Source: Oceanospirillaceae bacterium
GTDB lineage: Bacteria > Pseudomonadota > Gammaproteobacteria > Pseudomonadales > Balneatricaceae
DNA length: 64,000 bases
Direction: 5' to 3'
Assembly (NCBI GenBank): GCA_024640955.1
Contig: JAHEDZ010000001.1
Location: forward strand, 21,393-85,392
Shown: one piece after another, positions 9,060 to 54,260 of the stretch
Layout: each line of letters opens with the position of its first letter
How positions within the stretch are numbered: position 1 is the first letter of the stretch
The notes under the pieces: generated by a model
The model's database searches: none
Seen by the model: the letters and a program-made list of their open reading frames with translations, nothing else
What the model was told of the DNA's origin: nothing
Made by a program: the position numbers and the translations under genes

Positions 9060-9218
9060 GTGTTATGACCAAAAGCGATTCTGGTTAGTATATTTTCAGC
9101 TAAGCCTTTCTGCCATAGATCATTTAGTTATATGATTAGCTTGGTCTTGAATGATATATGCAAGATCACTAACATTCGCGCCGGGATACTAAAAAATCAA
9201 CATAGCCGGGAGGCATTG

Positions 9219-10562
9219 ATGGGAAACATCATCAAAGGGCCGTCGACTCGTGAGCTGATGCAGCAGCTTGTGACAGATTCTGAAGGAATGACTGTCAACG
9301 ATCGTCGCGATTTTCTCCGTAAGGGTATTGCAGCAGTGGGCGGCATGGCTGCAGCGACTGTTGCTGGCGGCGTAAGCGCTGCTGATAACGCAATGGTCAA
9401 CTCAACCAACCTGCCACCAAACGAGCCATCTTGGGGTCGTATGCTGGGTCACGGTGTAATCGAGTACCCATACGGTCAGCCATCGAAATACGAAAGTCAC
9501 GTTGTACGTCGTACAGTGCCATGGCTCACAGCTGAGTCTATCTCGTCTATCTCTATGACTCCGCTTCACGAACTGAAAGGTATCATCACCCCCAACGGTC
9601 TGGTTTTTGAACGTTACCACGGTGGTGTACCTACAATTAACCCAGAAGAGCACCGCCTGATCATCCACGGGCTGGTAGAGCGTCCATTGATCTTCACGAT
9701 GGAAGATCTGATGCGTTTCCCTTCTGTTTCAGTGATCAAATTCCTCGAGTGTCCTGCCAACGGCGGTATGGAGTGGCGCGGTACTCAGATGGAAGCGCTG
9801 CAGTTTACCCACGGCATGCTGTCGTGTTGTGAATGGACCGGTGTACCGCTGAAAGCGCTGCTGGAAGAGGCTGGCGTTAAACCAGAAGGTAAGTGGGTAT
9901 TGGCTGAGGGCGCTGACGGCGCGCACATGAGCCGCTCAATTCCTCTGGAGAAGTGTCTTGATGACGCTCTGATCGTGTACGCTCAGAATGGCGAGATGCT
10001 GCGTCCAGAACAGGGTTACCCAGTCCGCCTGATGAACCCAGGTTGGGAAGGCAACACCTCAATCAAGTGGCTGCGTCGATTGGAAGTCGGCGACAAGCCT
10101 TGGTATCACCGTGAAGAGACTTCGAAGTACACCGACCTGATGGCCGACGGTACTGCACGTAAGTTCACGTTCGTTCAGGAGTGTAACTCTGTTATCACTT
10201 CGCCCTGTCCTGAGAACCCAATCAAAGGTTCGGGCATGATCGAAATCGAAGGTATCGCATGGTCTGGCCGCGGCAAGATCAAGCAGGTCGATATCTCGTT
10301 TGACGGCGGTGTCTCTTGGACCCCAGCTAATCTGAAAGGTCTGGTGCTCGAGAAAGCCCTGACTCGCTTCAGCTTGGTTACTAAGTGGGATGGACAGCCT
10401 TGGCTGCTCCAGGCGCGTGCAATCGACGAAACTGGCTACGTACAGCCAACGCTGCAGCAGCTGCGTGATGTACGTGGTACTGAGTCGATCTACCACAAGA
10501 ACGCGATCCACACTTGGCAGGTATCAAACACCGGGGAGGTTAAGAATGTTCAAGTTAGCTAA
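9219..10562 (+). CDS. soxC: Sulfane dehydrogenase molybdopterin subunit SoxC
   Basis: Tat signal RRDFLRKG. Sulfite-oxidase-family Moco and dimerisation domains. GGGAGG RBS before the ATG at 9219. Followed by soxD with an overlap. Confidence 0.9.
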   Translation: MGNIIKGPSTRELMQQLVTDSEGMTVNDRRDFLRKGIAAVGGMAAATVAGGVSAADNAMVNSTNLPPNEPSWGRMLGHGVIEYPYGQPSKYESHVVRRTVPWLTAESISSISMTPLHELKGIITPNGLVFERYHGGVPTINPEEHRLIIHGLVERPLIFTMEDLMRFPSVSVIKFLECPANGGMEWRGTQMEALQFTHGMLSCCEWTGVPLKALLEEAGVKPEGKWVLAEGADGAHMSRSIPLEKCLDDALIVYAQNGEMLRPEQGYPVRLMNPGWEGNTSIKWLRRLEVGDKPWYHREETSKYTDLMADGTARKFTFVQECNSVITSPCPENPIKGSGMIEIEGIAWSGRGKIKQVDISFDGGVSWTPANLKGLVLEKALTRFSLVTKWDGQPWLLQARAIDETGYVQPTLQQLRDVRGTESIYHKNAIHTWQVSNTGEVKNVQVS

Positions 10563-11574
10563 GCCTACCCTCGTAGCGGCCGCTGTTGCTGGTTCGCTGG
10601 TAGCAGGTGCTGTAAATGCAGGTGAGCAGTTCGGTCTTGGCCGCACTGCAACTGCTGAAGAAATTGCCGGCTGGGATATCGATGTACGTCCTGACGGTAT
10701 GGGTCTGCCAGTCGGTTCTGGTAGCGTACTCGACGGTGAAGGTCTATATGAAGCGCAGTGTGCCTCATGTCACGGTCTGTTCGGTGAAGGTGAAGGCCGT
10801 TGGCCGGTACTGGCGGGTGGTCAAGGTACTCTTGCGGATGAGCGACCTACTAAGACTGTCGGCTCTTACTGGCCGTATGCTTCGACGCTGTATGACTACA
10901 TCTACCGCGCGATGCCGTTCCCAGCGCCACGCTCTCTGACTCCGGATCAGACCTACGCAATCTCAGCCTACGTGCTGTACTTGAACGAGATCGTTGACGA
11001 GGACTTCGTGCTGACCAACGAAAATTTGGCTGACGTCAAAATGCCGAACGAGCCAAACTTCTTCGTTGATCCACGTCCAGACGTAGCAAACACACGTTGT
11101 ATGTCTGACTGTGCTGATCCAGCTGCGCTGCAGGTGACTGGCTCTATCGGTGGTGTAACACCTGTAGGCCACTTCATCGAAGGTGCCGATGGTCCAGCAG
11201 CATCTCACGATGCTCAGCATGAGCTTGAGAAGAAGATGGAGATGGAGCGTCTGAAAGAGCTTGGCGTTGAGGTTGAAGAGGAAGAAGCTTCATCTGAACC
11301 AGCTGCTCTCTCTGAGGCTGCAGTTGCTGGCGAAGCAACCTACAATATGGCATGTGTAGCTTGTCATGGCGCAGGAATTGCAGGAGCACCAGCAGTAGGT
11401 GACAAAGCAGCGTGGGAAGCTCGCATTGCGCGCGGTATGGAGTCAATGATCAGTAATGCGATCAATGGCTACGCTGGCGACAATGGTGTAATGCCTGCGA
11501 AGGGTGGTCGGGCAGATCTCTCTGACGAGGCAGTAGCCAACGCAGTGGCTTACATGGCAGAATCTAGTCAGTAA
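10546..11574 (+). CDS. soxD: Diheme cytochrome c subunit SoxD
   Basis: Signal peptide MFKLAKPTLVAAAVAGSLVAGAVNA. Two CxxCH motifs (CASCH, CVACH). Overlaps the soxC stop. The 5' extension in the ORF track lies inside soxC. Confidence 0.85.
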   Translation: MFKLAKPTLVAAAVAGSLVAGAVNAGEQFGLGRTATAEEIAGWDIDVRPDGMGLPVGSGSVLDGEGLYEAQCASCHGLFGEGEGRWPVLAGGQGTLADERPTKTVGSYWPYASTLYDYIYRAMPFPAPRSLTPDQTYAISAYVLYLNEIVDEDFVLTNENLADVKMPNEPNFFVDPRPDVANTRCMSDCADPAALQVTGSIGGVTPVGHFIEGADGPAASHDAQHELEKKMEMERLKELGVEVEEEEASSEPAALSEAAVAGEATYNMACVACHGAGIAGAPAVGDKAAWEARIARGMESMISNAINGYAGDNGVMPAKGGRADLSDEAVANAVAYMAESSQ

Positions 11575-11668
11575 ATGACGAGATGCGGGGGTATTTGGGT
11601 TTGCCAAGTATCCTCGCTATTATAAAAAAAAGCGCCTAAAGGCGTATTTATCACTGGAAGGAGTGACC

Positions 11669-12028
11669 ATGCGTAAGTTGATATCAACACTCGCGATCAC
11701 TGGTCTAACACTGGGTGTTGCCGGTACTGCAGTGGCGGGTTCACACGGAGATATGATCAAAGAAGGGCAGGACGTTTACCACGGTAAATCACGCGGTAAC
11801 TGTATTGCTTGTCACGAGATCTCTGACCCAATTGCCAATCAAGCAGGTAATGTCGGGCCAATGATGATCGCAATGAAAGCACGTTACCCCAATAAGGCTG
11901 AGCTTCGTGCACAGATTTGGGATGCGACAGCTAAGAATCCTCTGTCAATCATGCCGCCTATGGGCAAGCATAACATTCTGACAGAAGATGAAATCGACGC
12001 AGTCGTTGAATACATTTATCAGTACTGA
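11669..12028 (+). CDS. soxX: Monoheme cytochrome c SoxX
   Basis: Signal peptide, a single CIACH, GGAAGGAG RBS 5 nt upstream, and position directly before soxYZA. Confidence 0.85.
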   Translation: MRKLISTLAITGLTLGVAGTAVAGSHGDMIKEGQDVYHGKSRGNCIACHEISDPIANQAGNVGPMMIAMKARYPNKAELRAQIWDATAKNPLSIMPPMGKHNILTEDEIDAVVEYIYQY

Positions 12029-12047
12029 TACGAGCAGGTGGAGTAAA

Positions 12048-12506
12048 ATGAGTATGAATCGTCGTACAGTTGTCAAAGCGATCGCGGCAAGCGGTGCGCT
12101 GATGGGCATGGGTGCATTGATGCCGCGCGTTGCGCTGGCTGCATGGAACAAAGACGCGTTTTCCGCGAAAGATCAGGCGTCAGCTATGAACGCTCTCTTC
12201 GGCGGCAGCGCAGAAGCTAGCGCTAACGTAATGCTGAAAGCGCCAGCAATCGCTGAGAACGGTGCAGTTGTACCTCTCTCTGTAAGCACAGACCTCGCAG
12301 ATGTTGAGTCAGTTGCAATCTTCATTGAGAACAACCCAACTCCTCTAGCTGCACAGTTCATGGTACCAGCGGGTACTGATGCTGACTTCTCAACTCGCGT
12401 ACGTATGGGTAAAACCACTAACGTAACTGCAGTTGTAAAAGCGGGTGGCAACACTTACAGCGCTACTTCAGAAGTTAAAGTCACCATCGGTGGTTGTGGC
12501 GGTTAA
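12048..12506 (+). CDS. soxY: Sulfur-carrier protein SoxY
   Basis: Tat signal NRRTVVKA and the diagnostic C-terminal GGCGG* swinging-arm motif. Confidence 0.95.
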   Translation: MSMNRRTVVKAIAASGALMGMGALMPRVALAAWNKDAFSAKDQASAMNALFGGSAEASANVMLKAPAIAENGAVVPLSVSTDLADVESVAIFIENNPTPLAAQFMVPAGTDADFSTRVRMGKTTNVTAVVKAGGNTYSATSEVKVTIGGCGG

Positions 12507-12532
12507 TCAGCGAGTTTATAGGAGTCACTACA

Positions 12533-12841
12533 ATGTCAATTTTTCGAGTTAAAGCTAAAGCCCGTAAAGGCAGCACAGACGTCAAGATGATGGCTAAGCA
12601 CGAGATGGAAACCGGTCAGCGCAAAGGCAAAGACGGTAATCTGATCCCTGCTAAGTTTCTTGACACTGTTACTGTTAAGCACGCTGGCAACACAGTTTTC
12701 GAAGCTAACCTCGGTACTGCGGTATCTAAAAACCCATACCTCGCTTTCTCATTCGCCGGCGGCGTGAAGGGTGAAGAGCTCGAGATCATGTGGACTGAGA
12801 ACACAGGTGCGAACGGTTCAGAAACTGGCGCAATCAAGTAA
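12533..12841 (+). CDS. soxZ: Sulfur-compound chelating protein SoxZ
   Basis: About 102 aa. MSIFRVKAK...TDVKMMAKHEMETG pattern, immediately after soxY. Confidence 0.9.
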   Translation: MSIFRVKAKARKGSTDVKMMAKHEMETGQRKGKDGNLIPAKFLDTVTVKHAGNTVFEANLGTAVSKNPYLAFSFAGGVKGEELEIMWTENTGANGSETGAIK

Positions 12842-12866
12842 TCAGGGTTCGGAGCCCGGAGGACTT

Positions 12867-13727
12867 ATGAAAATTATAAAAACAACACTGCTCGCTATGA
12901 GCGTTGCAGCCCTGAGCCAGACGGCGATGGCTGCCAAAACAGGTGCGACTCTGTCAACAGTTGATCCAGAAGCGGACCGAATTGCACTGCAAGAGTACAT
13001 GAAGGACCGCTTTCCAGACACTCCAGTGTCTGAGTACGTGAACGGTATCTACGCGGTAGATGCAGCTTCACGCGCACAGTGGGAGGAGATCGAAGAGTTT
13101 CCTCCATACGAGCTGGATCTGGAAGAGGGTGAAGAGTTGTTCAACGAGCAGTTTGCTAACGGCAAAAGCCTGGCAGACTGTTTCGACAATGGGGGTGAAG
13201 GCATTCGCCAAAACTACCCAATGTGGAACGACGAGCGCAAGACTGTTGTAACTCTTGAGATGGCAATCAACGAATGTCGTCTGCAGAATGGTGAGAAGCC
13301 ATACGGTTGGAAGAAAGGTCCAATCGCTAAGGTTTCTGCCTACATGGCGTATACCTCGCGTGGTAACGAGTTTGTAATCGACATTCCGAATGATGATGCA
13401 AAAGCGGCTTACCTTGATGGCAAGAAGTTCTTCTACACCAAGCGCGGTCAGTTGAACCTCTCTTGTGCAGACTGTCACCTGACGGGTACCAACCGCCTGG
13501 TACGTGCTGACCGTCCTAGCCCAGCGCTGGGTCACTCAACGCACTTCCCAGTGGTTCGTTCTAAGTGGGGTAACATCGGTACTATCCACCGCCGTTACGA
13601 AGGCTGTCACCGCGATTCACGTTCAGAGTTCCTGAAAGTGCAGAGCGAAACGTACCGCAACCTCGAGTACTTCCAGACTTACATGTCTAACGGTCTCGTT
13701 GTTAACGGCCCCGGTTCACGTAAGTAA
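12867..13727 (+). CDS. soxA: Cytochrome c SoxA (single heme motif)
   Basis: Signal peptide and one CADCH. The usual N-terminal heme site reads SLADCF, so it is lost. The conserved downstream Cys is present (RRYEGCHRD). Confidence 0.9.
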   Translation: MKIIKTTLLAMSVAALSQTAMAAKTGATLSTVDPEADRIALQEYMKDRFPDTPVSEYVNGIYAVDAASRAQWEEIEEFPPYELDLEEGEELFNEQFANGKSLADCFDNGGEGIRQNYPMWNDERKTVVTLEMAINECRLQNGEKPYGWKKGPIAKVSAYMAYTSRGNEFVIDIPNDDAKAAYLDGKKFFYTKRGQLNLSCADCHLTGTNRLVRADRPSPALGHSTHFPVVRSKWGNIGTIHRRYEGCHRDSRSEFLKVQSETYRNLEYFQTYMSNGLVVNGPGSRK

Positions 13728-14259: not shown

Positions 14260-16815
<2,556 letters not shown>

Positions 16816-29284: not shown

Positions 29285-29361
29285 GGAGTGGTAGTTCAGT
29301 TGGTTAGAATACCTGCCTGTCACGCAGGGGGTCGCGGGTTCGAGTCCCGTCCATTCCGCCA
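29285..29361 (+). tRNA. tRNA-Asp (GTC)
   Basis: 77 nt. Matches my recollection of E. coli tRNA-Asp closely. Anticodon loop CTGTCAC. Encoded CCA. Confidence 0.95.
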
Positions 29362-29378
29362 CTTACTCAAAACGTTAT

Positions 29379-29454
29379 GGGCGAATAGCTCAGTTGGGAG
29401 AGCATCTGCCTTACAAGCAGAGGGTCGGGGGTTCGAACCCCTCTTCGCCCACCA
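29379..29454 (+). tRNA. tRNA-Val (TAC)
   Basis: 76 nt. GGGCGAATAGCTCAGTTGGGAGAGC... Anticodon loop CTTACAA. Encoded CCA. Confidence 0.95.
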
Positions 29455-29458
29455 TAAC

Positions 29459-29535
29459 GGAGTGGTAGTTCAGTTGGTTAGAATACCTGCCTGTCACGCA
29501 GGGGGTCGCGGGTTCGAGTCCCGTCCATTCCGCCA
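29459..29535 (+). tRNA. tRNA-Asp (GTC)
   Basis: Identical in sequence to the copy at 29285-29361. Confidence 0.95.
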
Positions 29536-29587
29536 TCTCTCGTAGAATTCGGTATGAGAGATTAAGTCGCAAGGCACCGTACGTTTT

Positions 29588-29663
29588 GGGCGAATAGCTC
29601 AGTTGGGAGAGCATCTGCCTTACAAGCAGAGGGTCGGGGGTTCGAACCCCTCTTCGCCCACCA
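29588..29663 (+). tRNA. tRNA-Val (TAC)
   Basis: Identical in sequence to the copy at 29379-29454. Confidence 0.95.
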
Positions 29664-29667
29664 AAAC

Positions 29668-29744
29668 GGAGTGGTAGTTCAGTTGGTTAGAATACCTGCC
29701 TGTCACGCAGGGGGTCGCGGGTTCGAGTCCCGTCCATTCCGCCA
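29668..29744 (+). tRNA. tRNA-Asp (GTC)
   Basis: Identical third copy. Confidence 0.95.
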
Positions 29745-29748
29745 TTTT

Positions 29749-29821
29749 GAACTGATCGGTAAAAATACCTGCCTGTCAGCTCTCAGTGGTTATCGGGTCG
29801 CGGAGTCCCATCCATTCCGCC
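29749..29821 (+). pseudogene. Decayed tRNA-Asp copy
   Basis: AATACCTGCCTGTCA and GGGTCGCGG..AGTCCCATCCATTCCGCC are retained. The acceptor 5' arm is lost, about 14 nt are inserted after the anticodon loop, and GTTCG is deleted from the T-arm. Confidence 0.6.
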
Positions 29822-29881
29822 GTTTTAACTGTTTTGTCCTAAAAGCAGCGCCACATAACAGTGGCTCGCCTCCAAGGTTAT

Positions 29882-29957
29882 GGGCGAATAGCTCAGTTGG
29901 GAGAGCATCTGCCTTACAAGCAGAGGGTCGGGGGTTCGAACCCCTCTTCGCCCACCA
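29882..29957 (+). tRNA. tRNA-Val (TAC)
   Basis: Identical third copy. Confidence 0.95.
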
Positions 29958-44890: not shown

Positions 44891-44906
44891 TGGCACACTG
44901 ATTGCG
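44891..44906 (+). promoter_or_regulatory. Candidate sigma-54 (-24/-12) promoter upstream of amt
   Basis: TGGCAC-actga-TTGCG fits TGGCAC-N5-TTGCW except at the last base. 44 nt after the rlmL stop. Confidence 0.5.
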
Positions 44907-46492: not shown

Positions 46493-46579
46493 AAGAAACT
46501 ACATAAGCGCTTCCCAGACGCAAATGGCGATTGTTTGAGGTTTTGACCTACACTGTTGGTTATAGAAGAAGGAGTAATC

Positions 46580-47484
46580 ATGCGATTCGATCTCTGGCTG
46601 CCATTACTGAGCCTGGTTACCGCCGTCCACGCACTTGCCGAGCCCCTTAAGCGTGTTGAAGTGGCTGAAAATGTCTATGCGATTGTCGGTCCGCTCGAAC
46701 AGCGCTCCATGGGAAATTTAGGCAACAATGCAACCTTCGGCTTTTTTGTGACCGCTGAGGGCGTCGTACTCGTCGACTCGGGGGGTACCCTGCAGGGAGC
46801 CCAGGCGCTTGAGCAGCAGGTTCGTGAGGACCGATAAAGTGGGTAATCAACACGGGTGGACAGGATCACCGCGGGTTCGGTAATCACTACTTTACGTCAC
46901 AGGGTGCGCAAACCATTGCCGCTAGCGCAACCGTAAAAGATCAGATAGCTCTAGAGTCGCAAAGGGTAGAGCGTATGCGCTCGAATGTGCAGGGTGCCTG
47001 GGAGGGTACGCAGCCTGAACCTGCTCGTGAGCAGATAAAAGCGGCCACTCAATTTGAGTTAGGGGGTGTGAGTTTTTCAGTGATTCCACTTGGGCCGACG
47101 CACACATCCAATGAAAGCTTGGTCTGGTTGGAGCAGGACGCAGTACTGTTCAGCGGTGATTCGGTCTATGTTGAGCGAATGCTTAATGTGGGACCGCAGT
47201 CTCAGCACCGGCCCTGGATTGAGGCATTTACCACAATTGAAGCTCTCAATCCAAAGGTGTTGGTGCCGGGGCACGGCCATCCAACGACGCTGAAGGTGGC
47301 ACAGCGCGACACCCGCGACTACTTGGTCTACTTGCGTGAGCAGGTTGCTGAGCTATTAGATGCTGGTAGCGACATTCAGTCGGTCAATACAATCGATCAG
47401 AGTCGCTTTAGCTATCTAGCGGCCTATGAAGAGCTTCATGGCCGCAATGCTCAGCGTGTTTATGAAGAGATGGAGTGGGAGTAG
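46580..47484 (+). pseudogene. Secreted MBL-fold protein gene disrupted by a frameshift
   Basis: ORFs 46556-46837 and 46975-47484 belong to one MBL-fold protein. The downstream frame is open from 46828 (GPIKWVINTGGQDHRGFGNHYF...), so a -1 shift within 46828-46834 joins them. Confidence 0.65.
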
Positions 47485-47534: not shown

Positions 47535-50108
47535 TTAGCTCGCCTCGATTCGTGCTTTTGCTGCAGTAATTAAGCTGTCTCGGGTGAAGGGTTTCTTCAA
47601 CAGCGGAGCGTTGAACTTTGCCGTAAGACGCTCCAGACCTTGGTCATAACCTGATGCAAACATGAAGGGCACGCCCACACGAGCGAGCTCTTCGGCTATA
47701 GGTTCGCTGGTCTCTACTCCGAGGTTTACGTCGAGAATCGCGAAAGTCAGTTCGCCGCGGGCGATAATCTGCATGGCGGATGCCACACTCGATGCTAAGT
47801 GAACCTGGCTGAACCCCATCTCTGCCATCGTCGTCTCCTCATCAATGGCGATAATCATGTTGTCCTCTACAATCAGAACTGCGCCTAGATCACTACCCGT
47901 AACTTCTGCAGTGGGACTAGGCACTGAGCTTGCCTCGATGTTCTGGGCTGACGCACTACCATCCACTTGAGCGTTACTGTCATAAGTGAAGTGTTTGTTC
48001 GGTACTAAGAAGCGAGCTTGTAAGCCGTCTCGCGTCACTTTGTGCTCCGCTTCGCCACTGAGGTCCAGTGGTATCGCTCGTTCAATGATGAGTGAACCGA
48101 AGCCCCGACGCTCAGGCGGCTTCTCAACAGTCACACCCGACTCGGACCAGTTAAGCTCCAGGTTTAGGTGATGATCTAATGCCCAGCTAAAGTTGATGGT
48201 TCCGGTCGGGGTGGAGAGTGCTCCGTGCTTGATCGCATTGGTGATCAGTTCGTGTATCAGCAGGGTCATCGTGGTGTAGGCTTTGGGTGTCAGCAAAATC
48301 TCGGGTCCGGAGGCTTTGATACGATCCTGACCGTCGACGAAGGCGTTAAGCTCGGTCTCTAAAAGGGTGCTAAATGGTGTGTTGTTCCAGTTGCGCTCTG
48401 TTAGCTGGTTCTGCGCCAGTGCGAGTGCTTGAATACGACCGGCTAATATACCCTTGAACTCGTCGACAGTTTCAACCGATGTGGCCGTTTGGCCCACAAT
48501 AGAGTTAATGAGGCCCAGGATATTGCGCACACGGTGATTGAGCTCGTGGATCAACATATCCTGCTGGTCTTGCGCTTCAGAGGCGATTTTGTTGCGCTCA
48601 TCAATATTGCGTACAACGAGCTCGAGTAGTGTCCCTTTCAGTTCGTTGGCGAGGTTCAGGTCCTGCGGTGTCCAGGGGCGGCAGAAACCCTCCCTGAGCA
48701 TATTCCAGGCTGCGAAACTTTTACGAGGTGTCAGGCGTGAACCATTAGGCCCAAGTTCAACTGGTTTCTCGGGGTTACCCGCCCATTTAACCTCAGTCGT
48801 CTCTTCGCGGCGCAGAAACATCAGTAGGTCACGCGGGCGTTTAGAGATCGGAACCGCTAAAAGACCAGCGAACCGCTCAGCTACAGTAGCGTCAGTATCC
48901 AGCCAGTTTCCGAGATTCTCCACCGCGGTCACTTTAGTGGTGGCCTGTCTATTGAGGCGCTTAACCAACAGATCGATATCCTCCGAGCTAACGGGATCAC
49001 CCACAACCGAGCGTTCGCCATCAATTGAGAGCACCAGTGAGTCGCACGCAATCAATGACTTTATTTTTGGCGAGAAGGCAGACAGGTTTGCGAATAGTGC
49101 CAGGCTCGGATCTAGCCCCGCCATCATCTGCATATGCAGTTTTTGAGCTCCACCTGTGCCTAGGCTCGCCGCATTGTTAAGTTCACTGCGCAGTGCCAGC
49201 GCAAAGCTCTCGGCATAGAGCTCCGCATGTGTTTTGAGGGCCGTTGAACAATCCCGCTTGGAGTAGTGGTGGCAAGCGATCAATCCCCATAGCTCGCCAT
49301 CAATCAGAATGCTGATTGATAGTGAGGCTTGCACGCCCATGTTACGCAGATACTCAATATGTATCGGTGAGACTGTGCGCAGCGTTGATAGTGATAGGTC
49401 CAGATCCGCATCGTGAGGGGTGATCTCGACACCCGGGTCGTCGATGTCTGGAATCACTCTAAGCACAGAACGTTTATAGAGTGCCCGCGCCTGTTGTGGG
49501 ATATCTGAGGGTGGGTAGCGCAGCCCCATGAACGAGTCAACGTCAGACATTCGGTGCTCTGCTATGACCTCTCCCGATCCATCAGGGTGAAATTTGTAGA
49601 TCATAACGCGATCGAAACCGATCATCTGCCCAACTGAGCTAGCCGCCTGATGGCAAAGTTTGTCGACGCCGTCCGCTTTTGCGAGTTGGCGCAGGGCGCC
49701 GCGCAGACTGTCGGTGTAGTCTGCTGCTACAGCGACCTCATCGCTTGGCGCAAACTCAAGTATGAGAACCTCGTGGCTAAAGTGGACCGTCAGATCGTAC
49801 TCCTTGTTATCGACGAAGAGCGCAACTCCTAACAGTCGCTCGAGCTGGTCCTCATCCTCAAGGCGGTTGACCAGTTTGGTCAGTGCTGAGACCGATGCTT
49901 GCGTAAGCAGGTCGTTTAGCGGCGCACCAAGAATGCTCTCTGCGGATTTATGCGCCATGGCTGGCACATTATCGGAGTGTGCGATCACCAGCCAGTCGGC
50001 ACTTAGCGCCAGTAGGCCACCTCCGGAGTGCACCTTGCCGAGTAGATGTATCGGCTCCTGGTCGCAGGTGGAGAGGTTATATTTCATCGGTTCTACAGAG
50101 GTATTCAC
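47535..50108 (-). CDS. bphP: Bacteriophytochrome: PAS-GAF-PHY photosensory core + HWE/HisKA_2 histidine kinase + C-terminal receiver
   Basis: N-terminal LSTCDQEPIH (biliverdin Cys). GAF motifs YPPSDIPQQAR and SPIHIEYLRNMGVQASLSISI. H-box HELNHRVRNIL. W-x-E (NWSESG). Receiver LIVEDN...ILDVNLG. GTG start overlaps the upstream stop. Confidence 0.9.
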   Translation of the reverse strand: MNTSVEPMKYNLSTCDQEPIHLLGKVHSGGGLLALSADWLVIAHSDNVPAMAHKSAESILGAPLNDLLTQASVSALTKLVNRLEDEDQLERLLGVALFVDNKEYDLTVHFSHEVLILEFAPSDEVAVAADYTDSLRGALRQLAKADGVDKLCHQAASSVGQMIGFDRVMIYKFHPDGSGEVIAEHRMSDVDSFMGLRYPPSDIPQQARALYKRSVLRVIPDIDDPGVEITPHDADLDLSLSTLRTVSPIHIEYLRNMGVQASLSISILIDGELWGLIACHHYSKRDCSTALKTHAELYAESFALALRSELNNAASLGTGGAQKLHMQMMAGLDPSLALFANLSAFSPKIKSLIACDSLVLSIDGERSVVGDPVSSEDIDLLVKRLNRQATTKVTAVENLGNWLDTDATVAERFAGLLAVPISKRPRDLLMFLRREETTEVKWAGNPEKPVELGPNGSRLTPRKSFAAWNMLREGFCRPWTPQDLNLANELKGTLLELVVRNIDERNKIASEAQDQQDMLIHELNHRVRNILGLINSIVGQTATSVETVDEFKGILAGRIQALALAQNQLTERNWNNTPFSTLLETELNAFVDGQDRIKASGPEILLTPKAYTTMTLLIHELITNAIKHGALSTPTGTINFSWALDHHLNLELNWSESGVTVEKPPERRGFGSLIIERAIPLDLSGEAEHKVTRDGLQARFLVPNKHFTYDSNAQVDGSASAQNIEASSVPSPTAEVTGSDLGAVLIVEDNMIIAIDEETTMAEMGFSQVHLASSVASAMQIIARGELTFAILDVNLGVETSEPIAEELARVGVPFMFASGYDQGLERLTAKFNAPLLKKPFTRDSLITAAKARIEAS

Positions 50109-51646
50109 ATCTCTCTCCTTTCGGGGTGCTGTACCAGACAGCGCGTCAGTGCTTCAGATAGGATGGGTGTCCGTATGGGTTTCGTGATCAGCAGATCAAA
50201 ATCACCAACACTTAGTTGGTTGCTTAGGTCAGTTTCTGACAGTGCGGTGACGCCCAAAATAGGGGCAGTGCAGCCCTCGTCGCGTATCTGTCGCGCCGCT
50301 TGCGCGCCGTTGAGCCTTGGCATGTGAAAATCCATGAGGATAAGATCAACCTCAGGATGCGCGCGCATCACCTCTACTGCGTCTTGGCCATCTACGGCGC
50401 GCAGTACACGCTTGAATCCCATTTTTGCGAGGGCGCCCACTAGCACTATAAGATTGGTTGGGCTGTCATCGACGCAGAGTATGCAGAATGAGGATAGATC
50501 CTCAGGCAAGGTTGCGGGTTTCGTCTGGTCAGACGCTGTTTCAACGGCTACGGGCTCCAAAAGATCCGCAGATTCGGCGATGCTAACTAGGTCGCTCGGC
50601 AGATATGGCGTGTTCAACTGCCGACAATTTTTCGCAAGCATCGCGGTTGCGGGTTCAAACTCGGTTGAGAGCAGGCAGATCGTGTTGGGGCGAGCGGTAT
50701 CAGTAAGATGGCGAAATAGCACAAGATTCTTTGCCGCCAAACGGTAATCGATAATCCGCAGGTCTGCCTCTGCGCTAACCTCAGCCACCGTGAGTGAGTC
50801 TGAGGTTGTTACATCCATTCCGAAATGCCCCAGAGTTGCAATGTTCAGCTCAGTCTGGGCACTGGCTGGTGCGATAAATTGTATTCGGCTGTGCGACTGT
50901 TTCTGTTGCCAATTCGTAGCCCTAGCGTTTGAAGCGGGTAGGTCTAGTGTGAAATTGACCTGAGTACCCGCTGGGTTAGAGCGAATCTCCAATGAGCTGC
51001 TCATAAGCTTGAGCAGGTTGTGGGCGATATAGAGACCCGCACCGCTGCCTGGGGGCCTGCCCTTAGTGGCCGACGCTATCTGATAATGTGATTGTACAAC
51101 GAGCGGAATCTCCTCTTCGGGGATTCCTATTCCGCTATCGATCACGCGAAAAATCACCTGTGAGGTGGTCGCCTTCTCTTTTCGTAGGCCGACAACGAGT
51201 GTAACGCTTCCGTTGTCAGTAAACTTCACGGCGTTCGAAACAAGTGCAGAGAGTATCTGCAGCAGTCGCTCCTGATCGCCGATAAAGTTCTTTCCAATCA
51301 AGCGCGGATCAAACTGCAGCATCAAATCTACACCCTTGCTCTCAGCCTCGGCCGAGTAGAGTCTAATACTAGACTCTGCGACCTGGAGTAGTGAGTAGTC
51401 GCGGTGTGTGAAGACGACCTTGTTTGACGCGATACGCTGCACTTCGATGGCGTTATTGAGATGCTGATTAAGTCCCTCGGCGCAGAGCTCTATACGGTTC
51501 AATAAGCTACGTGTTGCATCGGGTAGCTCATGCTCTTCCAGCATCGTTAGTAGGCCAAGAATGCCATTGAGCGGCGTGCGTACCTCATGGCTGAGGACGT
51601 GTAGGTCGGTGAGGCGTCGGTTTTTGACGGCGCTGTTACTACTCAT
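50105..51646 (-). CDS. Hybrid histidine kinase with no recognisable sensor domain (HisKA-HATPase, unassigned segment of about 150 aa, receiver)
   Basis: H-box LSHEVRTPLNGILG begins at about residue 26. HATPase (DSGIGIP, GSGAGLYI). C-terminal receiver ILCVDDSPTN...LILMDFHMPRLNG...TKP. No TM helix. Confidence 0.88.
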   Translation of the reverse strand: MSSNSAVKNRRLTDLHVLSHEVRTPLNGILGLLTMLEEHELPDATRSLLNRIELCAEGLNQHLNNAIEVQRIASNKVVFTHRDYSLLQVAESSIRLYSAEAESKGVDLMLQFDPRLIGKNFIGDQERLLQILSALVSNAVKFTDNGSVTLVVGLRKEKATTSQVIFRVIDSGIGIPEEEIPLVVQSHYQIASATKGRPPGSGAGLYIAHNLLKLMSSSLEIRSNPAGTQVNFTLDLPASNARATNWQQKQSHSRIQFIAPASAQTELNIATLGHFGMDVTTSDSLTVAEVSAEADLRIIDYRLAAKNLVLFRHLTDTARPNTICLLSTEFEPATAMLAKNCRQLNTPYLPSDLVSIAESADLLEPVAVETASDQTKPATLPEDLSSFCILCVDDSPTNLIVLVGALAKMGFKRVLRAVDGQDAVEVMRAHPEVDLILMDFHMPRLNGAQAARQIRDEGCTAPILGVTALSETDLSNQLSVGDFDLLITKPIRTPILSEALTRCLVQHPERREM

Positions 51647-52281
51647 TTATCGACTCCTTTTGCCGAGCTTGGTGCCGTCTCAGCCGCCTCAAAACGGTCA
51701 ATCAACGACGTGAACGCCCAGCGAGCACCTTCGCCTGCCCGTTGCCGGGCTACGTCGCTACCTAGCCCCTCATCCAGGCGGGTCTGTGTACTCTGCCAGT
51801 AGCGATGGGTCTGGTCGCCATAGAGTCGGTAAAAGCGTGTGACGTCAGTGCGTTTGAGGCTTGCCTCAATGCGCGGCGAAAGAATCAGTGCACCCATCGA
51901 TGAACCCTCTAGGACGTAATGTAGTCCTAGTGCGAAGGCCTCGTCGGTACCTGTCGGGGTAGAGTTGTGAGGCTTGAACGGAAAGTTTTGGGTTGAGTGG
52001 TTTAGGTGCTTTAAATCTTCACTCAGCGCGTTGATCTTGTGTTGGGGGTCAGCATAGTTTGGAAGTTTCAGACTACTTAATGCAGGTCCAACGCTCAGTG
52101 TCCAGTTTAGCAGCACACTGAGAGTGCAGGCGTAACTCTGCTCGCAAAGGTCTGGTCGCATCAAACGGCGCATCTGCGGCATGGTATCGAGGCTACGGTG
52201 CAGGGAGGCTGTCTCGTGTTTAAGCCATTCCTGGGCTGTTATTTGTTCTAAAATGTCCACTGCAGGTGGGTCCTGTAACAA
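51643..52281 (-). CDS. bphO: Heme oxygenase-like protein (biliverdin-producing, BphO-type)
   Basis: 212 aa. LKHETASLHRSLD and YVLEGSSMGA fit heme oxygenase helices. Position upstream of bphP. Apparent TTG start. Confidence 0.75.
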   Translation of the reverse strand: MLQDPPAVDILEQITAQEWLKHETASLHRSLDTMPQMRRLMRPDLCEQSYACTLSVLLNWTLSVGPALSSLKLPNYADPQHKINALSEDLKHLNHSTQNFPFKPHNSTPTGTDEAFALGLHYVLEGSSMGALILSPRIEASLKRTDVTRFYRLYGDQTHRYWQSTQTRLDEGLGSDVARQRAGEGARWAFTSLIDRFEAAETAPSSAKGVDK

Positions 52282-52350
52282 GGGCTACTTCAATACCTAG
52301 CACTAGCAGTTTTTATGCCAATACGACACTGCAAATTCGATACTTTAAGC

Positions 52351-53097
52351 TCAAGGGTTGGGCAGATAAAAATCATGACTAAAACTGTCCATTTGAGGGC
52401 GTGCAAAAAGGAATCCTTGGAAGAGGTCGATGCCTAACTGGCGAAGATATTCGTACTCCTCATTCGTCTCTACACCTTCCGCTAGTATCAGAATGCCCAG
52501 CGCATCGGCAAAGCAAAGTACCGACCTTATTAGCGCTTGGCGCACACCACTTTCGTGTATGGAGCGTACCAGGTGCATATCGAGCTTGATGATGTCGGGA
52601 TCCACATCTATCAGGGAATTGAGTCCGGCCGAACCTGCTCCAAAATCATCCATTGCAATGGTGAAACCAACACTTCGAAGCCGGTTTAAGGCTCGTGAAA
52701 GCAATCTCATATCGCGTTGCAGCCCCTGCTCGCTGAGCTCGAGCACAATCTGTTGAGGCTTAACCTGGTCAGGTATGTTTGTGCATAGATCTATCAAGTA
52801 CTCGCCTTGGTCCAGTAGCAGATTCTCTGGGGTGACGTTGACGAAGAGTAGATCGGTATTGCCCAACAAGTGCGAGTACGTGAAAGCCGTCTCGTTGATC
52901 GTTTGCTCGAACTGAGGCTTGTCTTTCACCTCGATGCGCTCAAAAAGGAACCAGGGTGGTTCTTCGTCGGGGCCCCTGAGTAGGGCTTCATACCCGTAGA
53001 TCGCGCCGGTTGAGGAGCGAATAATAGGTTGGAATGCATGCCGGAAGGCGAGCCCTTTGAAAAGGCGAGCCGACGTCACCAAGCTGGTCGAGCTCAT
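52351..53097 (-). CDS. Stand-alone EAL-domain protein (putative c-di-GMP phosphodiesterase)
   Basis: FQPI......YGYEALLRG, FVNV, ELSE, MDDFGAGSAG, KLD, AEGVET and QGF are all present. The ATG at 53097 overlaps the BLUF stop (ATGA), with GAGGAG 7 nt upstream. Confidence 0.88.
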   Translation of the reverse strand: MSSTSLVTSARLFKGLAFRHAFQPIIRSSTGAIYGYEALLRGPDEEPPWFLFERIEVKDKPQFEQTINETAFTYSHLLGNTDLLFVNVTPENLLLDQGEYLIDLCTNIPDQVKPQQIVLELSEQGLQRDMRLLSRALNRLRSVGFTIAMDDFGAGSAGLNSLIDVDPDIIKLDMHLVRSIHESGVRQALIRSVLCFADALGILILAEGVETNEEYEYLRQLGIDLFQGFLFARPQMDSFSHDFYLPNP

Positions 53098-53498
53098 TGC
53101 CATACTCCTCGTCTGAACGCATCGAGAATGCGGCTGCCTCGGGCGCGATACTTGTGGGGAGCAAAAGAGGCTGAAAACGACTCCGTGCCGAGTGATACTA
53201 CTGCCATGTCCCAATTCGGGAACTCTCTTGAATGCACAATACGTTCAGAAATTAGCACAATGCTTTGATGCCGTCTGTCTTGCAAAATCTCAGCGAATAG
53301 GCGATTCACGGCACTTGCAGGTCCCTCGATTATTTGCATAAACATCTTATCGTGCCAGGCTAACGAACCCGTGATGCCGAAGCTATGATTCTTAGCTTGT
53401 ATCTTCGCTACAAATTCTGGAGACGCTATCTTCTCCGGAAAAGTATTAGCAATGCTGGTGTAAATAAGCTGCTTGAGAGGTTCGGTCTTCAAGTGCAT
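53094..53498 (-). CDS. Short BLUF-domain blue-light FAD photoreceptor
   Basis: LIYTS (Tyr), ITGSLAW.DKMFMQIIEG (Gln) and FPNWDM (Trp/Met) form the BLUF signature. About 134 aa from the ATG at 53498. Confidence 0.88.
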   Translation of the reverse strand: MHLKTEPLKQLIYTSIANTFPEKIASPEFVAKIQAKNHSFGITGSLAWHDKMFMQIIEGPASAVNRLFAEILQDRRHQSIVLISERIVHSREFPNWDMAVVSLGTESFSASFAPHKYRARGSRILDAFRRGVWQ

Positions 53499-53682
53499 CT
53501 TACGCGCCTTTATCCTGTGTTGTATTAAAAGTAGACGCAGTTTTGATCGCGTGCACATTTTAGCTTAGGCGCTTTGATACAGGAGCGCTAATAAAGATTA
53601 CGAGTGGACCTAAAGAGTTGGTTTGTAGCTAGGAAAGTCTTAAAGCGGGCTGGGCAGTGAAATAACGTCAGTCTCTAATATC

Positions 53683-53770
53683 GGAGGGCTCTTGGCCCAG
53701 CCAAGGTCGGGCAATACCACGCAGTGGTACAGCCCTCATAACGAGGGACTATTGTCCGACCAAGCGAGGG
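53683..53770. repeat. Intergenic palindromic mosaic element, copy E (rearranged)
   Basis: GGAGGGCT-CTTGGC-cca-GCCAAG-GTCGGGCAATACCAC-gca-GTGGTACAGCCCTC-ataac-GAGGGACTATTGTCCGAC. Confidence 0.65.
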
Positions 53771-53777
53771 TAAATGC

Positions 53778-54260
53778 TCAGTGGTGGTGGCCACCAGCGC
53801 CGTGTACATGGCCGTGATCCAGCTCTTCAGCTGAGGCTTCACGGATCTCAACGACTTCGACATCGAAGTTGAGAACCTGACCTGCTAGTGGGTGGTTACC
53901 GTCTAGCGTGATATTGTCGCCCTCAACCTTCACCACGGTTACTGGCTGCTCGCCCCAAGGTGTCTGCGCCATGAACTGCATACCCACGTCGATGTCGTCT
54001 ACGCCCTGGAATGCGCTGCGGTCAACTTCCTGTACCAGCTCGTCGCGCAACTCACCGTAGCCATCACCCGGCTCAACGCTCACCTGCAGGCTGTCACCAG
54101 CGGATTTACCGAGCAGCGCAGCTTCGAGGCCTGCGATGATGTTATTGGAACCGTGCAAGTAGACCAGTGGATCCTGACCCACGGAGCTATCAAGGGTTTC
54201 GCCATCGGCGTTAGTGAGAGTGTAGTGAATTGAGACGACGGTTTTGTCCGCGATTTGCAT
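53778..54260 (-). CDS. slyD: FKBP-type peptidyl-prolyl isomerase SlyD
   Basis: 160 aa. VVSIHYTL.....E..DSS...PL.YLHG, an IF-domain insert, and the His-rich tail HGHVHGAGGHHH. Confidence 0.92.
   Translation of the reverse strand: MQIADKTVVSIHYTLTNADGETLDSSVGQDPLVYLHGSNNIIAGLEAALLGKSAGDSLQVSVEPGDGYGELRDELVQEVDRSAFQGVDDIDVGMQFMAQTPWGEQPVTVVKVEGDNITLDGNHPLAGQVLNFDVEVVEIREASAEELDHGHVHGAGGHHH

Follow-up and report, generated by a model that had tools for sequence, protein, structure and literature searches.

A conserved locus combining BLUF-EAL and bacteriophytochrome genes, with a sigma-54-type element between the two units

A locus of five genes, which encode a short BLUF blue-light sensor, a stand-alone EAL protein, a heme oxygenase, a hybrid histidine kinase and a bacteriophytochrome, was analyzed in a 64,000-nt stretch of contig JAHEDZ010000001.1 from an Oceanospirillaceae bacterium. 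The whole stretch is called the window here, its coordinates are used throughout, and the loci of relatives and outgroups carry L-numbers (L068, L094, and so on). The locus is best explained, with a probability of roughly 0.6, as a composite of two autonomous light-sensing units, which would have been neighbours since one event in the ancestor of the clade and would be expressed from nested promoters with read-through between them. A composite is assumed because each module occurs alone elsewhere, and a single insertion inherited by descent is assumed because the juxtaposition was found in only one clade, in which its chromosomal site did not vary. The gene content, the conservation and the modularity of the locus, its intact catalytic and photochemical residues and a conserved promoter-like element are directly observed. 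New here are the conserved composite photosensory locus and an apparently sigma-54-driven family of phytochrome operons; the component units were already known.

Gene content and junctions of the locus

All five open reading frames (ORFs) lie on the minus strand. Their identities as BLUF, EAL, heme oxygenase, hybrid kinase and phytochrome genes, which had been proposed in an initial annotation, agree with the Pfam families found. The same five genes, coding for 134, 248, 205, 513, and 857 amino acids, are also in the output of an independent gene caller for identical contigs, which stem from four public sequencing runs. In the order of transcription, the locus comprises the following features:

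53499-53777, minus strand: intergenic region between slyD and the BLUF gene, presumed site of the BLUF-EAL promoter
53094-53498, minus strand: BLUF gene, short PapB-like blue-light sensor of 134 amino acids (Pfam BLUF, 1.4e-23)
52351-53097, minus strand: gene of a stand-alone EAL protein of 248 amino acids, predicted cyclic di-GMP (c-di-GMP) phosphodiesterase (Pfam EAL, 2.8e-46)
52261-52350, minus strand: intergenic gap between EAL and bphO, 90 nt with the bphO start at GTG 52260
52305-52320, minus strand: sigma-54 (RpoN)-type -24/-12 promoter element TGGCATAAAAACTGCT, assigned by sequence match
51643-52260, minus strand: bphO, heme oxygenase of 205 amino acids (Pfam Heme_oxygenase, 1e-07)
50105-51646, minus strand: gene of a sensorless hybrid histidine kinase of 513 amino acids (Pfam HisKA, HATPase_c and Response_reg)
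47535-50108, minus strand: bphP, Agp2-like bacteriophytochrome BphP of 857 amino acids (Pfam PAS_2, GAF, PHY and HWE_HK, and a sub-threshold Response_reg match)

Three of the four junctions are start/stop overlaps, exactly as first annotated. The stop codon of the BLUF gene and the start codon of the EAL gene share an ATGA at 53097-53094, which was read in the sequence. The ORF coordinates place the two other overlaps at 51646-51643 (heme oxygenase stop and kinase ATG) and at 50108-50105 (kinase stop and bphP GTG). The fourth junction, between EAL and bphO, is a gap indeed, but its length is more likely 90 nt than the 69 nt assumed at first. GTG 52260 is the likelier start codon of bphO, compared with the alternative TTG 52281, because the gene caller used GTG 52260 and the homologues have lengths of 194-204 amino acids.

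Distribution of the locus and of its two modules

The gene order slyD, BLUF-EAL-bphO-kinase-bphP, amtB was found in at least six divergent lineages, which belong to one uncultured marine clade. The relatives were found by a metagenome scan with BphP and by context look-ups of EAL homologues; the clade label comes from one EAL homologue, which is named Oceanospirillaceae by its source. The five-gene string is present at the following loci:

L068/L069/L074: between slyD and amtB, with bphO as a remnant
L070/L071: between slyD and amtB
L095: between slyD and amtB
L094: between slyD and amtB
L097: partial contig
L098: partial contig

Across the five-gene lineages, the identity to the window is 46-60% for BLUF, 51-73% for EAL, 42-50% for the heme oxygenase, 54-66% for the kinase and 65-78% for BphP, and the flanking DNA is 70-88% identical. 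According to these values, the lineages are related but well separated and share their overall synteny. The adjacency of the two modules, for which a synteny survey had been recommended initially, is thus conserved in six lineages with EAL identities down to 51%, and no intervening gene was found between the modules in any lineage.

Each of the modules was also identified alone. An overlapping BLUF-EAL pair with no phytochrome nearby is present in Leucothrix sargassi (L096) and in a gammaproteobacterial metagenome-assembled genome (MAG; L099/L100), and the EAL proteins of these loci are the nearest ones outside the clade (43-44% identity). In the latter genome (L099:6307-10017, L100:1654-3186), the pair lies between an IS91-type transposase gene and ParE/VapBC toxin-antitoxin genes, which suggests mobility of the BLUF-EAL pair.

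The bphO-kinase-bphP unit without BLUF-EAL was found in five outgroup contexts, each in a different neighbourhood and with mostly overlapping junctions:

L101/L102: BphP identity 57%
L103: BphP identity 56%
L105: BphP identity 56%
L106: BphP identity 50%
L104, Glaciecola sp. MH2013: BphP identity 45%

In L101/L102, a CheB-CheR-PAS gene is located just downstream of bphP (L101:14925-17894), together with genes for a PAS hybrid kinase and a REC-GGDEF regulator. In L105, a GGDEF-EAL gene (L105:4639-6672) lies immediately downstream of bphP and convergent to it, which is a second case of a c-di-GMP enzyme beside this phytochrome operon family.

Furthermore, kinase-bphP alone occurs in a Marinobacterium MAG and related contigs (L005, L072), with a BphP identity of 64%. 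At about 19 more distant BphP loci, no BLUF or EAL homologue was found within 10 kb (0 of about 19). A scan of a genome collection with the hybrid kinase gave one true relative only, which is the Marinobacterium MAG; the other 62 loci hold generic hybrid kinases without a phytochrome and are uninformative on synteny.

BLUF, EAL, kinase and BphP all place the window with L068 and L094, whereas in the flanking genes (GSHPx, MoxR, RlmL, and amine oxidase) it falls with L070 and L095. From this conflict it follows that the five genes were inherited or exchanged as one block, and physical linkage is enough to explain such a block inheritance. A reading of the cluster as a divergence island, based on protein identities far below those of SlyD and Amt, was dropped, as the flanks themselves show only 70-88% nucleotide identity and the contrast is mostly one of protein constraint. 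The incongruent grouping of cluster and flanks survives.

A sigma-54-type element in the EAL-bphO gap

A consensus scan of the EAL-bphO gap of the window revealed no terminator-like or sigma-70-like site, and the sigma-70 consensus was not matched in the gap of any lineage. An intrinsic terminator after EAL is missing in five of the six lineages, the window included (four of the five others). The initial annotation had reported a gap without a stem and U-tract, and the scan found none either, but the gap is not featureless, since it holds a conserved sigma-54-type element.

In the five other lineages the gap has a length of 73-109 nt. A DNA alignment of the gaps across lineages gave no conserved blocks outside this element, which is the only conserved sequence within an otherwise unalignable gap. 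It first surfaced in a k-mer search (TGGCA) and was then scored by its fit to the sigma-54 consensus (TGGCAC-N5-TTGCW; GG and GC mandatory, maximum 11). The window element shows the GG-N10-GC spacing on the sense strand, is located 30 nt past the EAL stop and 44 nt before GTG 52260, and scores 9 of 11. Each of the six lineages has one sense-strand site in its gap, which scores 9-11 of 11 and lies 1-30 nt past the EAL stop and 36-73 nt ahead of bphO; in three lineages the element starts just 1-3 nt past the EAL stop. The sites are:

Window: TGGCATAAAAACTGCT
L068: TGGCCCAAATATTGCT
L070: TGGCATGATGCGTGCA
L094: TGGCACATCTCTTGCT
L095: TGGCACAACCTATGCA
L097: TGGCATGCATTATGCA

Shuffled gaps reached the score of the respective gap in 0.2-0.7% of shuffles only, and these probabilities must not be multiplied, as the six gaps are homologous.

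Outgroups without BLUF-EAL carry such sites as well, in three of the four bphO upstream regions which were readable. L106 has a perfect TGGCACTAACTTTGCT at -136 (11/11), and weaker sigma-54-type sites were found upstream of bphO in L101 and L103. The GG-N10-GC spacing is exact in all nine copies, which always lie on the sense strand, and the 3′ half is always TGCW and never TGCCA. Two copies, those of L094 and L106, match the full consensus TGGCAC-N5-TTGCT. As a positive control served TGGCACACTGATTGCG at 44891-44906 (plus strand), which is located upstream of the ammonium transporter gene amtB and is conserved in L068 and L070. The amtB gene is a classic target of sigma-54 and NtrC.

The red-light module thus probably has its own activator-dependent promoter of the sigma-54 type, because the element is conserved in the gap of every lineage and also precedes bphO in outgroups without BLUF-EAL. 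The Rfam search of the window predicted six tRNAs only; riboswitches or other RNA elements in or near the cluster were not among its matches.

The spacer upstream of BLUF was analyzed, too. In the relatives it opens with a clear intrinsic terminator for slyD, which is canonical in four of them (L068, L070, L095, and L098), and therefore BLUF-EAL needs a promoter of its own within the slyD-BLUF spacer. Upstream of BLUF, no lineage showed a conspicuous match to the sigma-70 or sigma-54 consensus, and the spacer DNA is unalignable between lineages, with no conserved blocks. The spacer of the window is about 100 nt longer than that of the relatives, with the extra segment in 53660-53777 (minus strand), and lacks their clear slyD terminator. 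A slyD-proximal segment at 53660-53790 was considered as structured but rejected, since its folding is no better than that of shuffled sequence (z -1.56).

The BLUF-EAL pair

The closest solved structures of the BLUF protein are TePixD, BlrB and the BLUF domain of BlrP1. Its residues Y13, N37, Q55, W96, and M98, which are the counterparts of the photoactive residues of AppA, are invariant among eight homologues. Beyond the core, the protein has a conserved tail of 35 residues. The C-terminal segment R..IL.AF..G.W is conserved in the eight homologues, including the stand-alone BLUF-EAL pairs of the outgroups, and R120, L125, A127, and W133 are invariant even there. The predicted C-terminal helix would probably contact the EAL dimer.

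The second protein of the pair consists of an EAL domain only, with no receiver or other phospho-acceptor domain according to Pfam. Its best solved relatives are 6IFQ (1.3e-37) and BlrP1 (3GFX, 2e-35). Invariant among nine homologues are E37, N87, E120, E123, D150, D151, K171, E207, and Q227, which comprise every catalytic position, as well as R41 and E210.

Many EAL homologues with about 40-44% identity in a database of 5.8 billion proteins are BLUF-EAL fusions, and because of this Rosetta-stone evidence the BLUF protein is regarded as the regulatory partner of the EAL protein. At the locus itself there is no fused polypeptide, as two ORFs with a stop codon between them are present, and the same split occurs in all clade members. 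By homology to PapB/PapA and BlrP1, the pair would form a complex with blue-light-stimulated c-di-GMP phosphodiesterase activity.

The bphO-kinase-bphP unit

The heme oxygenase match of BphO lies above the Pfam gathering score, with 32.4 bits versus a cut-off of 23. Orthologues of bphO with 29-54% identity are located at the same place upstream of the kinase gene in relatives and outgroups. In L068/L069/L074 (L068:8213-8470), bphO is reduced to an in-frame remnant of 85 amino acids, in which about 50 N-terminal and about 30 C-terminal residues are joined. Despite this internal deletion, BLUF, EAL, kinase and BphP are intact. Consequently, this lineage must obtain biliverdin via another heme oxygenase, or its phytochrome runs without biliverdin.

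The H-box of the hybrid kinase begins at residue 16, directly at the protein start, and neither Pfam nor NCBIfam revealed an input domain. HisKA and HATPase_c are followed by a middle region of about 140 amino acids and then by the receiver. The middle region has no Pfam match even at an E-value of 10. It shows a weak in-register match to the receiver of the same protein (hhalign, E-value 0.01, probability 4%), and a pseudo-receiver is not claimed. All relatives, to as low as 45% BphP identity, have the kinase gene directly upstream of bphP, and its stop codon mostly overlaps the bphP start codon. In the bphO-kinase-bphP operon of Glaciecola (L104:5804-8008), the kinase has 734 amino acids and a hydrophobic N-terminal extension, so the kinase is sensorless in some family members only.

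BphP has the architecture PAS2-GAF-PHY-HWE kinase-receiver. The HWE_HK match has an E-value of 3.2e-21. For the receiver, the Response_reg score of 22.2 bits is below the Pfam cut-off of 30.2; homologues carry a precomputed PF00072 assignment, and the Asp, Ser, and Lys positions are retained. The motifs STCDQEPIH, DIP, PRKSF, and ACHH were read in the translation, and by its sequence Cys15 in STCDQEPIH is the predicted N-terminal biliverdin-binding Cys of BphP. There were 104 phytochrome matches in the PDB, the best one being 6G1Y (9.5e-81), which is the photosensory module of Agp2 (AtBphP2), a bathy bacteriophytochrome. Full-length homologues of BphP with the same domain architecture are widespread.

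The unit has the organization of a bphO-bphP operon, as the heme oxygenase gene is located upstream, the genes are co-oriented and the junctions overlap, and the three genes recur together in five outgroup contexts. According to Pfam, neither an Hpt protein nor an output response regulator is encoded in the five-gene cluster, and in NCBIfam no match reached the curated family cut-off for any of the five proteins.

Proposed organization and alternative explanations

In the composite locus, the BLUF-EAL pair would have inserted just upstream of the promoter of the red-light unit and downstream of the slyD terminator. The bphO-kinase-bphP unit would have retained its ancestral sigma-54-type promoter, which would now lie within the 90-nt EAL-bphO gap. 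BLUF-EAL transcripts probably read through into bphO, because no terminator follows EAL, and this would lead to a basal co-expression, to which the sigma-54 promoter would add an activator-dependent expression of the red-light module. BphO is predicted to make biliverdin for the Agp2-like phytochrome, the sensorless hybrid kinase would be the conserved partner of the phytochrome in a branched or multi-step phosphorelay, and the output regulator of this phosphorelay may be encoded outside the cluster. Such a nested arrangement would differ both from a plain single operon and from two insulated operons. The biochemical activities, the promoter use, the read-through and any cross-talk between the modules are what we infer.

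Several points weigh against this explanation. Two sigma-54-type matches were found in the window versus 0.75 expected, and a single match alone is not significant. As the six lineages are homologous, the motif counts lack independence, and the case rests on the motif having been kept while the gap diverged. The Glaciecola operon (L104) shows no sigma-54-type element upstream of bphO. Within the window, no gene for RpoN or an enhancer-binding protein was seen, and no upstream activator site was found. The element itself is a sequence match only, and a Rho-dependent termination would be compatible with the missing intrinsic terminator. Finally, an adjacency which was kept through 45-55% protein divergence and the loss of bphO could mean selection for co-expression, which, if so, favours a single operon and one device.

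That the five genes form one operon and one device, in which blue and red/far-red light converge on a common c-di-GMP and phosphorelay output, seems unlikely. The genes share a strand and overlap at three junctions, the short gap has no terminator in the window or in four of the five other lineages, and the adjacency is kept in six lineages, even where bphO is deleted. Both modules share a phylogenetic pattern unlike that of the flanks. In addition, c-di-GMP genes are located near outgroup phytochrome operons (REC-GGDEF in L101, GGDEF-EAL in L105), which hints that this phytochrome family is often wired to c-di-GMP. However, a conserved sigma-54-type promoter element lies between the modules, both of them are autonomous elsewhere, and the arrangement is confined to one clade and one site, where a single event with physical linkage explains the conservation as well as the shared phylogeny. 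Moreover, a phospho-acceptor domain is absent from the EAL protein, neither an Hpt protein nor an output regulator is encoded in the cluster, and the roughly 19 more distant BphP loci hold no BLUF or EAL within 10 kb. No output regulator, gene fusion or independent re-occurrence was seen that would link the modules functionally. The single transcription unit feeding one output, which had been proposed initially, is not supported, so that the initial reading holds only in part. A single integrated two-colour system is not shown by these data, and a phosphorelay and c-di-GMP output shared by both colours is speculation.

Doubtful, and even less probable, is an extended form of this device. Here, read-through would couple the expression of the modules, and the relay and the BLUF-controlled phosphodiesterase would converge on one c-di-GMP-dependent behaviour, possibly by protein contact between the modules, and a light-responsive activator of the NtrC family may feed back on the sigma-54 promoter.

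There is also little probability that the modules are unrelated and uncoupled neighbours, with BLUF-EAL transcripts ending before bphO by Rho-dependent or other termination and the adjacency being a neutral relic. Each module is independent elsewhere, and the red-light module has a promoter-like element of its own. The whole slyD-amtB synteny is conserved, so the adjacency needs no selection, and the loss of bphO leaves the rest undisturbed. Yet slyD is followed by clear intrinsic terminators in the relatives, while none follows EAL in five of the six lineages, and in three lineages the element starts so close to the EAL stop (1-3 nt past it) that a terminator would not fit in between. Furthermore, no gene is present between the modules in any lineage despite the indel turnover next door, where metallo-beta-lactamase-fold fragments downstream of bphP occur in the window alone. 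The initial annotation had named an independent promoter and efficient termination in the gap, together with an adjacency not conserved in relatives, as the signs of two unrelated operons; a promoter-like element is indeed there, but no terminator was found and the adjacency is conserved.

That the conserved TGGCAY-N5-NTGCW element serves a different DNA-binding regulator as its operator, or acts at the RNA level in a read-through transcript, is very improbable. Its assignment to sigma-54 comes from motif matching, neither a gene for an enhancer-binding protein nor an upstream activator site was seen nearby, and some copies, such as TGGCATGCATTATGCA in L097, are partly palindromic. However, the TGCW 3′ half, the exact spacing and the sense orientation are common to all nine copies, two of them (L094 and L106) represent the full consensus, and the same scan recovers the conserved site upstream of amtB.

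Comparison with known light-sensing systems

The PapB-PapA system of Rhodopseudomonas palustris combines a short BLUF protein with an EAL phosphodiesterase that stands alone (Kanazawa et al., 2010, summarised in PMC8846402). The pair described here resembles it in its separate polypeptides, in the short BLUF protein with a C-terminal extension (helical in PapB), in the solo EAL protein with intact catalytic residues and in the adjacent genes, which overlap here; this likeness is one of architecture. In contrast to PapB-PapA, the pair is located directly upstream of a phytochrome operon. BlrP1 of Klebsiella pneumoniae is a close relative of the EAL domain (see above), but unlike BlrP1 and other fused BLUF-EAL proteins the present pair consists of separate proteins, encoded with a stop codon and a gene overlap of 4 nt.

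The Agp2-type architecture with an HWE kinase and a C-terminal receiver has been described for Agrobacterium fabrum (bioRxiv 10.1101/2023.12.15.571814). BphP of the window is likewise built as PAS2-GAF-PHY-HWE_HK-receiver. Different from Agp2, the bphP gene is translationally coupled to the gene of a sensorless hybrid kinase and follows bphO.

Ramlibacter tataouinensis has an operon of hmuO, BphP1, cheY and an atypical hybrid kinase gene (PMC6848086). In Pseudomonas aeruginosa, BphP of the bphO-bphP operon phosphorylates AlgB, a sigma-54-dependent regulator of the NtrC family (PMC6932827). Both operons share with the present one a heme oxygenase gene within the phytochrome operon, and that of Ramlibacter also encodes a hybrid kinase alongside. 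The present unit differs from them by the order bphO-kinase-bphP, the lack of a CheY-like regulator and the apparent sigma-54-type promoter.

Engineered dichromatic c-di-GMP modules combine the near-infrared cyclase BphS with the blue-light phosphodiesterase BlrP1 or EB1 (PMC8846402). The locus is similar insofar as it, too, joins a predicted blue-light phosphodiesterase to a phytochrome-based sensor of red/near-infrared light. It is, however, a natural locus without a GGDEF output on the phytochrome side, and a link from red light to c-di-GMP is hypothetical.

The full-text literature search found no published description of the BLUF-EAL-bphO-kinase-bphP arrangement, in agreement with the initial view that no locus combining both modules had been described; most subscription-journal papers lie outside such a search, so the absence is unproven. 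In Ramlibacter tataouinensis the BLUF and phytochrome genes are located at separate loci. The same is true for Spongiibacter nanhainus, the other closest candidate in the literature.

The composite locus is a concrete place to test the integration of light colours, in an abundant uncultured marine clade. Such integration is known in few bacterial cases, for example for LOV and BphP in Pseudomonas syringae, and for non-phototrophic bacteria few bacteriophytochrome outputs are known to us. An enhancer-binding activator may gate phytochrome expression, as the apparent sigma-54 control of the bphO-kinase-bphP family suggests, and the signalling from BphP to AlgB in P. aeruginosa (PMC6932827) raises the testable idea of a feedback. 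If the modules are independent, the locus consists of two known sensors which are neighbours by chance. A natural dual-colour device, if true, would have its engineered counterpart in the dichromatic c-di-GMP modules.

Further observations in the window

Between bphP and amtB, two adjacent plus-strand ORFs of 93 and 169 amino acids were identified at 46556-46837 and 46975-47484. The 169-amino acid ORF matches the C-terminal part of a metallo-beta-lactamase fold, and the 93-amino acid ORF has no Pfam match. These fragments are present only in the window, and in the relatives amtB directly follows bphP. The two ORFs resemble one split gene and are probably a pseudogene.

A CheB-CheR-PAS fusion protein of 851 amino acids is encoded at 14260-16815 (minus strand), about 30 kb from the cluster, and shares its domain architecture with the product of the CheB-CheR-PAS gene beside bphP in L101/L102. 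The six tRNA genes are arranged in tandem at 29285-29957 (plus strand), with tRNA-Asp(GTC) and tRNA-Val(TAC) alternating three times. Finally, genes for a molybdopterin oxidoreductase, c-type cytochromes and a SoxA/TsdA-type cytochrome are located at 9132-13727 (plus strand), which suggests a cluster for the oxidation of sulfur compounds.

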